Of a DNA stretch of 64,000 bases, positions 2,217 to 63,690 are shown one piece after another. Source of the DNA: an uncultured archaeon (GTDB taxonomy: Archaea > Thermoplasmatota > Thermoplasmata > Thermoplasmatales > Thermoplasmataceae); the NCBI GenBank assembly GCA_000965745.1, contig CP009479.1, forward strand, positions 672,001 through 736,000. Direction: 5' to 3'. Position numbers and translations under genes: made by a program. The notes under the pieces were generated by a model, which saw only the letters and a list, made by a program, of their open reading frames with translations, was not told the DNA's origin and made no database searches. Position 1 is the stretch's first letter; every line of letters begins with the position of its first letter.

Positions 2217-2975
2217 GGATAGTCATCTTGTGAGCATATTTTTACGTTCCGCAATCGTTATAGTTCGAAATGTGAAATGTTTGGTCAAAAACCCTAAGTC
2301 TAAGTAATCTTTGGTATAACGTTCTATTTTTTATGTTGCGCCACAAGGCAGGATCATTGTCACTTTCCCAGTAGTAATCAAATCTGCACTTACATCTCCG
2401 AAATCTTCCACAAGTCCCTGGAAAAAGGAATCAAAGTGAGGTCATAATCCTAAGATATTACAGGTGTTTATCGCTTACATACTGTTTTTATACAATAAAA
2501 GTCAAAGAAATATCTCTTGCCGCCATCATTTATTTCCAGGTCAATTGTCGCGTTCCATTCATTTAAAGTTGAATTTGTGGTATCACAATCAAATTCACCT
2601 CCAATCGGCGGGTAGATATATGTCTAGTTGTTGATTTCTATATGGACAGGAAACTGAAAACACTCATTGCCATAACCGGTGCAGCACTGTTAACTGCACC
2701 ATTGAATTATCTCAATGTTACCAGGATGTTTCGATGACATTCTGGATGCACAATTTTCTTTTTGAAATCAGGGTCATAGCAATGGAATCCCACGGAAAGT
2801 AATTTCTGCCTTTCTGAGGGCATTTGGATTATTGCTCCATGAACAAGGTTCCTTGATCTGTATTCATGGCTCAGCCTTTTCTCTTACACGAAACCGGTTA
2901 ATTTGGGTCAGTTTTTGTTCTATGCAAAATAAAGCTGTAAGCGGAAAATGGAGAAATGTTGGAAAAATTTCCTCC

Positions 2976-3932
2976 TTATTTTCCTATTATATCCACCAGG
3001 TCAGTCAAAGCAGCCTGTGCTGTCTCAACTCTCCCTGCTCCAGGTCCGGCTACAGTCACCTCTCCCAGTGTATCGGTGTCAAACTGGATTGCATTTGTAA
3101 CTCCTGTCACATGGTAGAGAAGGTCTGTTTCGTCGAGTTTCACTGGCCTTACGTATGCATCATTCTTGTCGGCGTATCCTATCAGCTTGTAACCCTTCCT
3201 GTCCCTCGAATCCTTCAGGGACCTTATTCCCTCGATCCTGACATCAGAGAAGGTTCGTTTCCATCCGAACAGGCTGCTGAGTATCGCAACCTTCGCTCCT
3301 GCATCATACCCGTCAACATCGTTAGTTGGGTCTGCTTCAGCATAGCCTTTGCTCTGCGCTTCCTGCAGAGCCTTGTCGAAGTTCTCTCCAGCATCGAGCC
3401 TTGAGAGTATGAAATTGGTCGTCCCGTTGAAAATTCCCCTTACAGACTTTACCTCACTTCCAGGAAGGAGATCCATAACATTGAATGAAGGGGTTCCGGC
3501 CATCACAGTGCCCTTGATCCTGAGATTCCTTCCATTCTTGTCGGCCAGTTCCTTCAGCTCATTGTAGAATAGTGCTATTGGTCCCTTATTGGTTGTTATC
3601 ACGTCTTTTCCTGTTGTCAGAGCTTTTCTTATATGGGACACTCCAGGCTCTCCATCCTTGAAATTTACCCAGGTAAACTCGCAAACGATATCTGCATCTG
3701 ATTTCTGTATGATATCAAGAACATCAATTTTGGAACCATCTTCAACCGGTTTGAGGTTTGAAATAAGATCATCCTGGGGATTGACAATATGCCCGTATTT
3801 CAGATCTACAATCTCACTGATGCTTACATTATCAAGAGCAAGTGACTTTTTCTTGCTGTTGAACAGCTCAAAGAAACCCTGGCCAACTGTCCCGAATCCG
3901 AGAATTGCCACCTTAACATTATCTGAAGACAT
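2976..3932 (-). CDS. hom: Homoserine dehydrogenase (no ACT domain)
   Basis: GFGTVG Rossmann motif, TTNKGP, GIFNGTTNFIL, GYAEADPTNDVDGYDAGAK, GPGAG. Confidence 0.92.
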   Translation of the reverse strand: MSSDNVKVAILGFGTVGQGFFELFNSKKKSLALDNVSISEIVDLKYGHIVNPQDDLISNLKPVEDGSKIDVLDIIQKSDADIVCEFTWVNFKDGEPGVSHIRKALTTGKDVITTNKGPIALFYNELKELADKNGRNLRIKGTVMAGTPSFNVMDLLPGSEVKSVRGIFNGTTNFILSRLDAGENFDKALQEAQSKGYAEADPTNDVDGYDAGAKVAILSSLFGWKRTFSDVRIEGIRSLKDSRDRKGYKLIGYADKNDAYVRPVKLDETDLLYHVTGVTNAIQFDTDTLGEVTVAGPGAGRVETAQAALTDLVDIIGK

Positions 3933-4181
3933 GAGCAATTTATTCTATTCAATTTATTAAATTTAGCTCTGCCTTGACCGTAATAATTTGAATATGGCAA
4001 AGGTCCTTTTGAATTCTTTTGGCAAATTGGGTTATTTTCCGACAAATTTTCAAGACAGGGAGGCAAATAGATTCAACTTGACTTATGAAAGATTAAAAGC
4101 CCGACAAAGGGCTGGATAGGTCCGTGAAGAAGAACAGTGAGTCACGACAAAGACTAAATATGGTGCGGGCGTTGCGATAGC

Positions 4182-4547
4182 ATGGCAAACGCAACCAAGA
4201 CGAGCTGGGATGGTGTCGAGTCGGAACAGCTTTCAGAAACAATTTCCAGGAAATTTATACACGGAGAGAAAGTGATGGTGGCTGAGATAAGGCTGAAGAA
4301 GGGTACCGTTGTTCCTGAGCATCACCACGAAAGTGAGCAGGTCACATGGATAATGAAGGGAGAACTTATCTTTGAAATAGATGGAAAGGAGATAAGCGTA
4401 AAAGCTGGAGAAGTTCTGGTTATACCCTCAAACAAGCCTCACAAGGCAACGGCCGTCGAGGACACAATAGATATGGATCTGTTCAGTCCCATAAGGCAGG
4501 ACTGGATCACAGGAAATGACCAGTATCTAAGAGGAAAGCAGGCTTAA
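4182..4547 (+). CDS. Cupin-domain protein
   Basis: PEHHHESEQ...G and IPSNKPH cupin motifs. Confidence 0.9.
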   Translation: MANATKTSWDGVESEQLSETISRKFIHGEKVMVAEIRLKKGTVVPEHHHESEQVTWIMKGELIFEIDGKEISVKAGEVLVIPSNKPHKATAVEDTIDMDLFSPIRQDWITGNDQYLRGKQA

Positions 4548-37180: not shown

Positions 37181-37434
37181 GAATTCTCAACGTATGTGGT
37201 TTCTCCATATAAATTCTAAATCGTTTTTTTATCTAATCTATTTGCCTCACCTATGAGATTCCATAAATACGAGTAATATTACCGTCTGCTTTTTCAATGA
37301 TGTTGAAGGGACTAAAATTTAGAGTTGTTTTTAATTTGACTTTATCGATCACCAATCACTGAAGATCCACTTACTTCGTTGAAGTGAATTTTGGTTTGGA
37401 CCCCTATTGTGGGAGTAGATTGTCTTCTTAGCTA

Positions 37435-38636
37435 TCATCTCTCTTCTATTAGATTTTCCTTCCATGTTTCATAAACCTCCTTTGGTGCTCTGTATCCGAT
37501 CGCCGAATGCAGTCTCTCATTGTTGTAGAATGCAATGAACCTGTCGATTGTGCCATCTGAATCCTTGAACGATGAGAACTCAAACCTTCTGATCACTTCC
37601 TTCTCCAGGATAGAGTTGAACGACTCGATGTGCGCATCTTCCTTTGGTGTGGCGGGATGAATCCTCTCATGCTCGATGTTCGAGGAGGAGAGGAACTGTT
37701 CCACCATCCTGGATACAAACTGCGTGCCATTGTCGCTCCTTATTCTGACCTTTGATACTGCATTCCCTCCTCGATCCAGGAAAGCGAAGTCCATCGCCAT
37801 CTTCACATCCCTTGAGGTGCAGTGATATCCCATGTAATGGCCGACAACCTCCCTGGTGAAGCAATCAATTATGGCGAACAGGTAGGCTGTCCTGTTCTCT
37901 CCCTGTATGTAGACATACTTGATGTCCATCTCCCAGACTTCATTTGGTGCATGAACATCCACAACGGACTCAACAACCCTCTTTGCAGGACTGCGATAGT
38001 TGTATGTGTGGTTGAGAAGGTTATTCTCCTTCATGAGACGGAAAACCTTCTTCCTGTTGATCCTGTACCCGGATCTCTGAAGGTGCTTTGTCACCTTCTT
38101 GTATCCATAGCAGACAAACTCCCTTGAGAGCAGTTCCCTGATCTCATCGAGTACCTGATTGTCAGGAACAATGATCTTACCGGCAGTGGAGGAGAGTTCC
38201 GTTTTCACAGTACGTTTCCTCCCTCTCCTCATTCCGATCATTGAAGGCTTCCGGTAATAGGTGCTCTCAGGAATGTGGAGAAGTTCCAGAATCCTTGAGA
38301 CATTGAGGCCTCTGGTTCTATATTGTTGGATCAGGACTGCCGCCTCCTTCTTTTTTTATATGCTTCCTGCAGCATTTCCACCTCGAGTTCCCTCTCGGCA
38401 AGCATCTTCTTCAACCGTTCATTCTCCTTCTTCAGCTTCCTCACGCTTGGATCCGAGTGCCTGGTTCTCGATCTGAGGCCTTCCACACCATACGTGTCGA
38501 ATATCTCCTTCCAGCGGTAGAACATTGTTGGATCCGCACCATATTTCCTGCATGTCTCAACAACCTGGCCCTTCTCCTTGATCTCGTTGATCAGTGCGAG
38601 TTTCTCCTCTGCCTTCCATCGTCTCCGCTCGGTCAT
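37435..38636 (-). CDS. IS3-type transposase OrfA (38636-38331) and OrfB via -1 frameshift
   Basis: A-AAA-AAG at 38357-38350; WEMDIKY, RSDNGTQF, IESF, YNNERLHSAIGY. Confidence 0.9.
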
Positions 38637-38642
38637 TGTTCC

Positions 38643-40540
38643 GTAGGGTAAAAACCTGGATTTCTCCAGGCCCTTCCACATCAAACCGTACGGTCGGTTT
38701 TCCCGAATACGGCTTTCCGGTGCGCTTCACCACGCGGCATTCGACCTGGATAGGAGATTCTGCCTGTCATTTTCATAAGACCCGTTTTTCGTGCGACACT
38801 CTTAGTATCTCCTTTCCAGGAGACCCTTGGGATCTTATGCTGATGGCTGTAGAACTTAGAGACCTTCCACTCGACAAACATGTGCAGGGTGGAGTACTGT
38901 TTGCTAGCATTTGTATGGTTGAAGTAGTTTGTCCATCCCCTGATCAGGGAGTTCAACTCATCGATCAGAGTGTTCATCGATTTGATGTGCGTCAGGTGTA
39001 TCGATGTGAGTGCTTTCACCTTTTCCCTGAATTTTCTCATGGATCCAGCGGAAGGATAGACCTTTGTAACTGGCTTGCCCGATACATGGGACACTTTCCT
39101 GATGAAGTGGAATCCCAGAAAATCAAAACCATCTTCGGCAGTGATCACACTGGACTTCTCCCTGTTCGGTTCAAGTCCGAGAAGGGATATTATCCTTTCC
39201 AGCGTTTCTGCCACTGCCTGTGGATCCTTGTTCGTCAGTGCGAGAAGATCGTCTGCATATCGAACAAGATGGGCGCTATGCTTGAGCGGGCTTTCCATTC
39301 CCCTCCTTGTCCAGAGTGAGTCAAGCTCATTGAGGTATATGTTAGCCAGAAGAGGCGAGATAACGCCTCCCTGCGGAGTGCCCTGTTCAGGATAACTCGT
39401 GTTCCCCTGGAAGACGATACCTGCCCTGAGCCATTCCCTGATGAGCTTGATCACATATGGATCAGTGATTCGCTTCATGACGGAGAAGACCATCTTCTCG
39501 TGATCAATGTGGTCAAAGAACCCCTTGATATCCATGTCCACTATGTTCGTGTATCCAAGGTTGAGCAGATGACGGATCTTCTCCGAGGCCTGCATTGCAG
39601 ATCTTCCGGGTCGGTACCCGAAGCTGCAGTCCTTGAAATCCGCTTCGAATATTGGCTCTATGATGGATTTCACCGCCTGCTGAACCACCCTGTCCCGGAT
39701 CGTTGGAATACCCAGAGGCCGAAGCTTTCCATCGCCCTTGGGTATGAAGACCCGCTTCACTTTTGGTATCCTGTATGTCTTCATTCGAAGCTGCTGCTGT
39801 ATCTCTGTTAGGAATTGATCGACTCCGCGATTTTCTATGTCCTCTATTGTCTCGCCATCAACGCCAGGTGCTCCATCATTCCCTGCAACTGCTTTCCATG
39901 CGGCTCTCAAAACATCGAGCCTGCACACCTTGTCGTGTAGGGAATAAAATCTTCTTTGTTCGTCCGTCTTGGCCGCGTGGTAGAGCCCATTCTGCAGGGA
40001 TTCGAGTGTTTTCAATCTTCGTACCCCCTTTCGAGAGAATAGAATACTCCTCCCCTGTAAATGGGCATGCACAGAGCAGGGTTCCTTCCCTTGTCTGGAG
40101 TTGTGCTGTCTCCGGATTCATTGGTACTATTAACCCCTCCGACTCCTTGCATCTCATTGCGATCCCTTTCCCTTACGGTTATAGGATCAGCTACCACTAC
40201 TCAACCCTCCAAGGCATGTTCGTGGAAGCTGCAAGGTCTCCCGATTTAGCGCATATGACATTCCTCTCTTGCCGTCGGCAGGACACCGGGAAGGCGGGTA
40301 TTCCAATGTGGCTGTACAGAATACCCATGGCAGTCTTCGCCTTTTGGGGACGGGCTCGACCCTTCCATTTGGGCTCACGGTGCTATGTTCCGTTCTCTCT
40401 CGATGCGGCCAGAGATTTTGCAGAATGGATAACTTCACACCACCCATCACTGGGAAGCATGTATCCTCTGCTATGTGGCTGAACCACTGATTTCCACAGT
40501 AAGACTTACACTCACTTGCCATATGTTTTCCTCGGCGTGC
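38643..40540 (-). ncRNA. Group II intron (about 1.9 kb)
   Basis: 34-nt domain V AAAGCCGUAUUCGGGAAAACCGACCGUACGGUUU (38716-38683), domain VI hairpin ending CCCUAC, internal RT gene; removal restores an IS leader matching the intron-free copy at 63223. Confidence 0.92.
38681..40015 (-). CDS. Group II intron reverse transcriptase/maturase without HNH domain
   Basis: [45 protein letters not shown]-domain LIRGWTNYF; likely TTG start 40015 after AAGGGG (track ORF starts at 40072). Confidence 0.95.
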
Positions 40541-40730
40541 CCCCAGACCCTCTTCAATATGGTCTTTAATATATTAATATCACTATTAGTCAATCTTCTC
40601 CATTGATTTAAGGGGCCAGACCAATTTGTTGGTAAGGTAATTCATATTCACTTGTAAATATGACTTGTTGTTTATGAATGTTTGATGATGTAAACACACT
40701 TACGGTATTGCTCAAATTCCATTTTGGGGT

Positions 40731-63222: not shown

Positions 63223-63690
63223 TGTGCTGGCCCCTTAAATAATTGGACAACATTGGCTTATAGTAATAGAAAAGTATATATAGGGGGGTTCTAGGGGGAA
63301 ATGACTCGCAGATACTGGAAAGCGGAAGAGAAACTGGCACTCATCAACGAGATCAAAGAAAGCGGACATGTCGTTGAAACCTGCAGAAAATATTCTGTGG
63401 ATCCATCCATGTTCTACCGTTGGAAACAGGCCTTCGATGCACTAGGCATGGATGGGCTCAGATCCCGTACAAGGTCCTTGGAACCAGGCCTCAGAAAGCT
63501 GAAGAAGGAGAACGAGAGATTGAAGAAGATGCTTGCAGAGAAGGAACTGGAGGTATCACTGCTCCAGGAAGCATATAAAAAAACGAGGAGGAAACCGCGT
63601 TGATCAATGAGTATGCTGGACGTGGGCTCTCAACGACCAGAATCCTGGAACTTCTAAGGATACCACGGAGCACATTCTATCATACAAAAA
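63223..63690 (+). mobile_element. Truncated IS3-type element (left IR, orfA 63301-63603, start of orfB)
   Basis: TGTGCTGGCCCCTTAAAT end; OrfA similar to 38636-38331; A-AAA-AAC slippery site; right boundary approximate. Confidence 0.85.

Follow-up and report, generated by a model that had tools for sequence, protein, structure and literature searches.

Splicing of the group II intron RmInt1, a class D intron of Sinorhizobium meliloti, is required for transposase expression and mobility of its host insertion sequence (IS), ISRm2011-2, and the intron has been proposed to limit spread of that element (PMC4238363). Classes of introns lacking an endonuclease are commonly found in IS elements, and their recorded hosts include IS66, IS3/IS911, IS4, ISRm25, an 'integrase catalytic region' and 'RNA domain 6 of B.t.I3' (PMC3552965 Tables S1, S2), and class F and g2-g4 introns provide examples in Ni.ha.I1, located in an IS4 transposase, and in B.th.I3 and Ma.sp.I2, located in transposases (PMC3552965 Table S2; PMC3753933). 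In Archaea, a survey found group II introns in 9% of genomes and in 15% of Thermoplasmatota genomes, with intron-encoded proteins falling in classes C, D, CL1A and CL1B; the one Thermoplasmatota entry that we found in it is methanogen ISO4-H5, with a class C intron (PMC8919778). Mobile group II introns are known in Methanosarcina and other Archaea (PMC8919778; Dai and Zimmerly 2003, cited there), and group II introns have been seen in Ferroplasma transcriptomes (bioRxiv 10.1101/538918). Here we describe a group II intron that lies in the 5' leader of an IS3-family element on a 64,000-nucleotide stretch of a Thermoplasmataceae genome (contig CP009479.1, positions 672,001 to 736,000), hereafter the window, and compare it with these systems.

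We consider it probable that an endonuclease-less Thermoplasmata group II intron retrohomed into the leader of an intact IS3-family element, guided by its exon-binding site 1 (EBS1), and that the transposase may then have become dependent on splicing. The intron ribonucleoprotein would recognize the exon end UGGGG by its EBS1 loop, CCCCA, and reverse-splice into the sense strand of the IS 5' leader. Without an endonuclease, a nascent DNA strand would serve as primer, as shown for RmInt1 (PMC8914252). The leader site shows strong conservation within the IS family and repeated use by this intron lineage. The insertion splits a run of six G's and places 1.9 kb between a candidate TATA box and the start codon; exon ligation alone would restore the run. 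We infer that the element still splices and that transposase can be made from this IS copy only via spliced RNA, in which case the intron would act as a brake on IS mobility, as for RmInt1 in ISRm2011-2. Sequence comparison directly demonstrates the anatomy and exact boundaries of both elements, empty and occupied alleles, a conserved and covarying ribozyme, and intact reverse transcriptase (RT) and transposase frames.

The intron spans positions 38643..40540 (1898 nt, 5' GCACG to 3' CUAC) and, like all features of the IS and intron described here, is encoded on the minus strand. It was identified by Rfam matches, and its limits were established by the empty site, conservation among relatives, and covariation between EBS1 and intron-binding site 1 (IBS1). 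An earlier note, made from the letters of this DNA alone, had proposed an intron of ~1.9 kb at these positions with domains V and VI and a YADD RT. Rfam, Pfam and a consensus fold agree with that proposal, and placement of the 3' end CUAC relative to the orfA ATG (38636) agrees with the note's further statement that the intron sits in sense orientation 6 nt upstream of that codon. The insertion point is 83 nt from the IS left end. The Rfam model group-II-D1D4-6 (RF02005) was covered in full (1-225) at 40277-40508, with 63.3 bits and an E value of 7.8e-17, and Intron_gpII (RF00029, domains V and VI) matched 38643-38717 with 40.9 bits against a gathering score of 40. Domain V (38683..38715) displays an AGC triad, a 2-nt bulge and a 5-nt loop in both the Rfam alignment and the consensus fold, and domain VI (38646..38679) folds into a long stem of ~15 bp with a bulged branch-site A at 38649. 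The domain V/VI consensus fold of 11 related introns kept 27 pairs, and compensatory changes occur at 13 of these. The bulged A is separated by 7 nt from the 3' end, which reads ACCCUAC and satisfies the AY 3' consensus. At the other end, the block GCACGCCGAGGA begins at the same point in six related introns with unrelated upstream sequence, and conservation of GCACGCCGAGG among relatives further supports the intron boundaries. IBS1, UGGGG (40541..40545), comprises the final 5 nt of the 5' exon and pairs with EBS1, CCCCA (40345..40349), in a domain I hairpin loop (GU-CCCCAA) that can engage the final 5-6 nt of the exon. Supporting this pairing by covariation, the homologous loops of 10 introns match their differing 5' exons at 5-6 of 6 positions. 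The ribozyme segment ahead of the RT open reading frame (ORF) measures ~520 nt.

The host is an IS3-family element (37392..40623) whose inverted repeats (IR) and target-site duplication (TSD) were read directly, and which is 1334 nt long after intron removal. Its left IR, TGGTCTGGCCCCTTAAAT (40606..40623), is kept across nine relatives, and the right IR (37392..37409), the reverse complement of TGGTTTGGACCCCTATTG, equals the left at 12 of the first 15 positions. The termini read TGGTCTGGCCCCTT at the left and the reverse complement of TGGTTTGGACCCCT at the right, the IRs being imperfect, and the element is flanked by the duplication ATTT (40624-40627 and 37388-37391). The 3' exon begins at 38642 (GGAACA-ATG) and leads into orfA (38331..38636), which encodes 101 aa with an HTH_Tnp_1 domain (1.6e-13). 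An A7 run at 38351..38357, also present in relatives, is the predicted slippery site for a -1 frameshift between orfA and orfB. The orfB frame (37435..38355), with HTH_21 and rve (3.9e-21) domains, runs for 306 codons without a stop, starting at 38355, which fits a predicted OrfAB frameshift fusion. The element thereby combines the hallmarks of the IS3 family: TGG...CCA termini, a 4-bp TSD, a helix-turn-helix OrfA, a DDE rve OrfB in the -1 frame and an A-rich slippery site. The earlier note's description of an intact IS that retains both IRs, a 4-bp TSD and its slippery site thus holds, given the ATTT flanks, the A7 run and the open orfB frame. Exact look-ups of the 101-aa OrfA and a 268-aa OrfB returned no recorded match.

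Intron-free relatives show what the leader looks like without the insertion. The spliced product predicted for the window would read GGUCUGGGG|GGAACAAUG across the exons, and the junction ligated in silico, GGTCTGGGG|GGAACAATG, is the same sequence as in intron-free relatives from other genomes; those in other genomes of the family share the ligated TCTGGGGGGAACAATG exactly. The closest is an intron-free IS copy in a metagenome-assembled genome (MAG; L198:4912-6245, contig DATFKY010000276.1, GCA_035268245.1). Over 1334 nt, the spliced window IS is 98.4% identical to this copy (98.2% in the comparison used for the IS tree), with 21 substitutions and no indel. The two leaders do not differ at any position between 22 and 188, the junction aligns without a gap, and the orfA and orfB frames are of equal length. 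Moreover, 4.8 kb adjoining the intron-free copy are 100% identical to the window genome, and the occupied and empty sites therefore represent a polymorphism within one species. As a caution, the immediate flanks of this copy are rearranged relative to the window genome, and MAG contigs can be chimeric. The pair demonstrates a precise past insertion only. The earlier note had matched the predicted junction to an intron-free relative at 63223. That relative exists, as a truncated copy (63223..63591, plus strand) of a 75%-identical sister IS with three identical full copies elsewhere in the genome, and the agreement of the junction with relatives in other genomes and with the 98.4% empty copy is stronger evidence for the same point.

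Details of the intron-free contig and of the IS comparison deserve separate mention. The 98 nt before the IS (L198:4815-4911) have no match at that place in the window genome, and the 32 nt after it (L198:6246-6277) map ~0.9 kb away in inverted orientation, with no clean TSD, suggestive of local rearrangement or a chimeric contig. Eight of the 21 differences between the two IS copies are packed into 12 nt of orfB (38177-38188) and may represent a small conversion or recombination patch.

The arrangement in the window is also found outside its assembly. Independent metagenome contigs from three samples carry the same junctions at 99.95% identity, and the locus is therefore not an assembly artefact. 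A chimera joining intron to IS, for which we found no supporting point, has a negligible probability in our estimation given these contigs and a diverged second occupied copy that shares the 3' junction. The latter was recovered by scanning metagenomes for the 3' junction pattern, a search in which 40 of 41 matches were due to chance. It resides on a 1389-nt contig, is 88.2% identical to the window in the intron and 88.3% in the IS, has compensatory changes in domain VI, and retains intact frames.

Equal divergence of intron and IS between the two occupied copies is what would be expected if the two formed an old unit that transposes or transfers whole, the intron-free copies having arisen by precise intron loss. 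That no donor intron copy exists elsewhere in the genome and that an intact TSD surrounds the composite are also in keeping with such joint travel, as is a sister lineage in which an identical intron and adjoining flank on the side of an IS110-family element occur in two flanking contexts (L205, L207). However, the IS tree places the intron-free copy as sister of the window IS, and another intron-free copy (89.6%) and the second occupied copy are equally close to the window IS. With the window IS 98.2% identical to an intron-free copy and 88.3% to the other occupied copy, whole-unit inheritance needs at least two precise losses, and retrohoming into a conserved site, a well-known and efficient process, yields the same pattern. 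Because the window IS is sister to the intron-free copy and not to the second occupied copy, there were either two or more invasions of the IS site or two or more precise losses of the intron, and retrohoming is the simpler reading. On these data, repeated retrohoming is indistinguishable from co-transposition; we regard the old composite as unlikely, if far from negligible. The earlier note's suggestion that the intron hitchhikes on an IS family consequently stands in part. Supporting it, a second IS lineage (88%) is occupied and related introns lie in leaders of two other IS types, but the host IS and intron are single-copy, the closest IS copy is intron-free, and some clade members lie upstream of ordinary genes.

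We surveyed related elements in the host genome, a single 2.23-Mb contig. The full copies of the sister IS (C1:2219320, 1640866 and 1110162), two of which have 4-bp TSDs (AAAG and CCTT), have IRs that differ little from the IRs of the host IS. The full copies and the fragment at 63223-63591 are all intron-free and carry a near-cognate site, AGGGG instead of UGGGG. A second intron in the genome (L011:3352-5299; C1:1299851-1301798) is 69-81% identical to that of the window and has a frameshifted RT. Its insertion point immediately follows domain V in a third, truncated intron, and the maturase tail of that third intron adjoins an ORF fragment of P-loop (helicase-like) type. The EBS1 of the second intron, CGAACC, fits the flanking GGTTTG. 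In other genomes, a different IS3-family element (L213:2395-5715), with an OrfA 27% identical to that of the window, carries a related GCACG intron (2472-4359) whose RT is 62% identical. That intron starts 77 nt in from the left end of the element, with orfA 30 nt downstream of the intron and a AATATATA box ~30 nt upstream. Another related intron (L205:2474-4356) is located 82 nt upstream of an IS110-family transposase gene. Two assemblies (L205 and L207) share this intron and 79 nt of its upstream flank at 100% identity but differ in the sequence beyond, and the RT of this intron occurs as an identical protein on 22 contigs. Other introns of the clade are located upstream of ordinary genes. 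In the few clade 5' exons available for comparison (window, L213, L205, L102, L100), the intron lies ~20-32 nt downstream of an AT-rich, TATA-like motif, close to a predicted start of transcription.

The window leader contains an invariant ATATATTA block (40567..40574), unchanged in nine IS relatives, that is a candidate archaeal TATA box. This ATATATTA block ends 26 nt before the intron insertion point, and the usual archaeal spacing between TATA box and transcription start would put the start ~2-5 nt upstream of the insertion point. Downstream, a conserved G6 run lies 4 nt before the AUG and is interrupted by the intron, with four G's on the 5' side and two on the 3' side. Through G-C and G-U pairs, this run could base-pair with the 3' end of 16S rRNA (...CACCUCCU, CCUCC), and it may act as a Shine-Dalgarno (SD) element. 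The earlier note had assigned the insertion to the ribosome-binding region, which this pairing makes plausible, but the predicted start of the transcript falls at about the same place.

Several observations weigh against retrohoming followed by splicing-dependent transposase expression. The predicted 5' exon may be barely of IBS1 length and possibly too short for IBS1 pairing. The short predicted 5' exon is the weak point of a splicing-dependent transposase. For IIE/IIF introns in vitro, EBS1-IBS1 pairing alone suffices (PMC3753933), and because only this pairing is required, splicing with a short 5' exon may still be possible. The 2.23-Mb genome contains one copy each of the composite, the host IS and the intact intron, with no recent mobility visible, whereas the intron-free sister IS has three full copies. 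The RT start codon is TTG (40013-40015), where relatives carry ATG and begin MK.LE. A complementarity scan of domain I against positions -5 to -20 of four 5' exons found no consistent EBS2/IBS2 pairing. Furthermore, the intron 5' end, GCACG, departs from the GUGYG consensus. The boundary is nonetheless real, on the independent lines of conservation, EBS1 covariation and the empty site, and GCACG is a consensus deviation in an otherwise complete ribozyme that gives no ground to exclude group II membership. Finally, ratios of nonsynonymous to synonymous substitution (dN/dS) between the two occupied copies, 0.14 for the RT C-terminus, 0.24 for orfA and 0.11 for the orfB N-terminus, reflect purifying selection that may have acted mostly on intron-free ancestors. 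Because the IS tree places an intron-free copy as sister of the window IS, this signal is not creditable to the composite, and we downgraded dN/dS as a sign of selection on intron and IS together once that placement was obtained.

A leader position so close to the start of transcription also allows for a dead-end insertion, in which an intron at or beside the orfA transcription start, with a 5' exon too short to splice, would leave the IS copy silenced and mobile only in trans. The predicted start ~2-5 nt from the insertion point and the contrast between a single-copy composite and a sister IS with three full, TSD-flanked copies lend this scenario some credence, and the sister IS, with nearly the same IRs, could supply transposase in trans. 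Beyond the IS left end, the neighboring gene upstream is encoded on the other strand and directed away from the IS, such that no read-through from a neighbor is evident. Conversely, the intron is intact, as are its RT and the two transposase frames, and comparison with the empty copy shows no indels. The estimate of the transcription start is rough, and in other leaders related introns are spaced similarly from TATA-like boxes, an odd outcome were the position lethal to the intron. We regard a dead end as unlikely, if far from negligible.

Splicing would be dispensable if the transposase were translated from unspliced RNA by termination-reinitiation at UGAUG (38679-38683), to give an OrfA with a 15-aa N-terminal extension. 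In the window copy, the orfA frame indeed stays open back across domain VI as far as an AUG that overlaps the stop codon of the RT, forming a 117-aa ORF (38331-38684), and gene callers give a 116-aa product on metagenome contigs. However, the second occupied copy has a stop in the domain VI extension frame, and its RT ends upstream of domain V. The stretch in question comprises the linker between domains V and VI and the domain VI stem, and is RNA-constrained and strongly structured. This route accordingly strikes us as very improbable, and we favor retrohoming with expression of the transposase through spliced RNA.

A broader proposal, which we put forward as speculation that is clearly more likely wrong than right, is that the GCACG clade of Thermoplasmata is specialized for sites within the first few nucleotides of a transcript, frequently that of a transposase gene, inserting between TATA box and start codon and splitting an SD-like G run. 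The intron would take over the promoter, with a 5' exon little longer than IBS1, and the IS would become a splicing-gated transposon, a leader-located archaeal version of the RmInt1 strategy.

The RT/maturase encoded in domain IV of the intron (38681..40015) comprises 444 aa from its TTG start, with the YADD motif (RYADDLL in the ORF), matches to RVT_1 (E 2.2e-38) and GIIM (8.5e-13), and no DNA-binding/endonuclease (D/En) domain. Its frame is intact, and a protein identical to it exists in public data (P0001). Nearest named relatives are from Cuniculiplasma, E-plasma and Thermoplasmataceae (58-62% identity). Together with an SSU_rRNA_archaea match of 1524 bits in the same genome, these relatives confirm the archaeal host proposed in the earlier note. 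Relatives of the RT were present in 16 of 301 genomes sampled from the host's class, this genome counted. Among sampled genomes of the same genus, the RT was not found in two and a match to the host IS sequence was not found in three. Searches of genome contigs with conserved RT peptides gave, among the matches listed, only bacterial relatives at 38-47% identity, which were used as rows of the RT tree.

Comparison with classified introns pointed toward class F. Identity of the RT is 38% with Ni.ha.I1 (g3, class F) and 40-44% with many bacterial RTs that carry no class label. A quick maximum-likelihood tree places it in a nine-row archaeal clade with full support, within a 20-row group (SH-aLRT 97) that holds Ni.ha.I1. 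Membership in class D, the class of RmInt1, was ruled out: identity to the class D references E.c.I9 and the B. pseudofirmus plasmid intron, picked from Table S1 of PMC3552965, is 33%, the alignments stop before the C-terminus, and class D is placed far outside on a branch of length 2.15. Against solved structures, the RT scored 204 and 199 bits with class C RTs, 159 with the CL-type TeI4h and 132 with LtrA. The 5-nt domain V loop, long domain VI and small ribozyme typical of IIE/IIF introns (PMC3753933) are all matched by the window intron. We therefore assign the intron provisionally as class F-like, provisional because classes A, B, C and E, as well as CL and ML, have no reference in the tree.

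Among related archaeal introns, the 5' ends are graded (window 40536-40540, L101, L106, L109, L110), from GUGCG (RT ~42% identical) through GCGCG (54%) to GCACG (57-100%). An epsilon-epsilon' covariation accompanying the change at A3 was considered. One domain I column (U vs C) tracks the change, but the intermediate GCGCG intron misfits, and the idea was left as a lead. A 5' exon hairpin, AGACC...GGTCT, was rejected as a mimic of class C-like targeting since relatives do not conserve it. Within the intron, a freshwater-1 RNA match of 24 bits, where the gathering score is 72, was taken as chance.

Within one species, the locus provides a clean, naturally occurring example of an archaeal group II intron whose homing site is known both occupied and empty, together with an intron lineage whose non-canonical 5' end is both conserved and backed by covariation. 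The location in the leader, at or beside the predicted transcription start and outside the coding region, is unusual. If the intron splices as proposed, it would offer a compact system for promoter sharing between an archaeal retro-intron and a DNA transposon, and would also address the shortest tolerated 5' exon and, in Archaea, the restraint of IS spread by an intron that has been proposed for RmInt1 in bacteria. The principles of group II intron biology are unchanged by this locus.

RmInt1 in ISRm2011-2 of S. meliloti is alike in being an endonuclease-less RT-X intron in sense orientation at an IS homing site (PMC4238363, PMC3035460). The two differ in that RmInt1 interrupts the transposase coding region, whereas the window intron lies in the untranslated leader and leaves the coding region untouched. 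RmInt1 is, moreover, a bacterial class D intron, while the window RT shows 33% identity to class D references and belongs to a GCACG intron of an archaeal host. Introns of class F and g2-g4 share an RT-X protein of ~430-445 aa, an intron length of ~1.9-2.0 kb, the 5-nt domain V loop, a long domain VI and frequent IS hosts. Unlike them, the window intron belongs to a separate, well-supported archaeal clade, has a non-canonical 5' end, and yielded no consistent EBS2/IBS2 pairing in our scan. Archaeal introns of Methanosarcina and others are likewise mobile, and intron-in-intron nesting, known among them, also occurs at the second locus of the window genome. They differ in class, being C, D, CL1A and CL1B in the survey as against the class F-like clade of the window, which also occupies IS leaders. 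An intron nested in an IS is already well known in bacteria, and coupling of splicing to IS mobility is already published for RmInt1 (PMC4238363). Particular to this locus are a leader position by the predicted transcription start, a class F-like archaeal clade with GCACG 5' ends, and an occupied/empty pair in one species.

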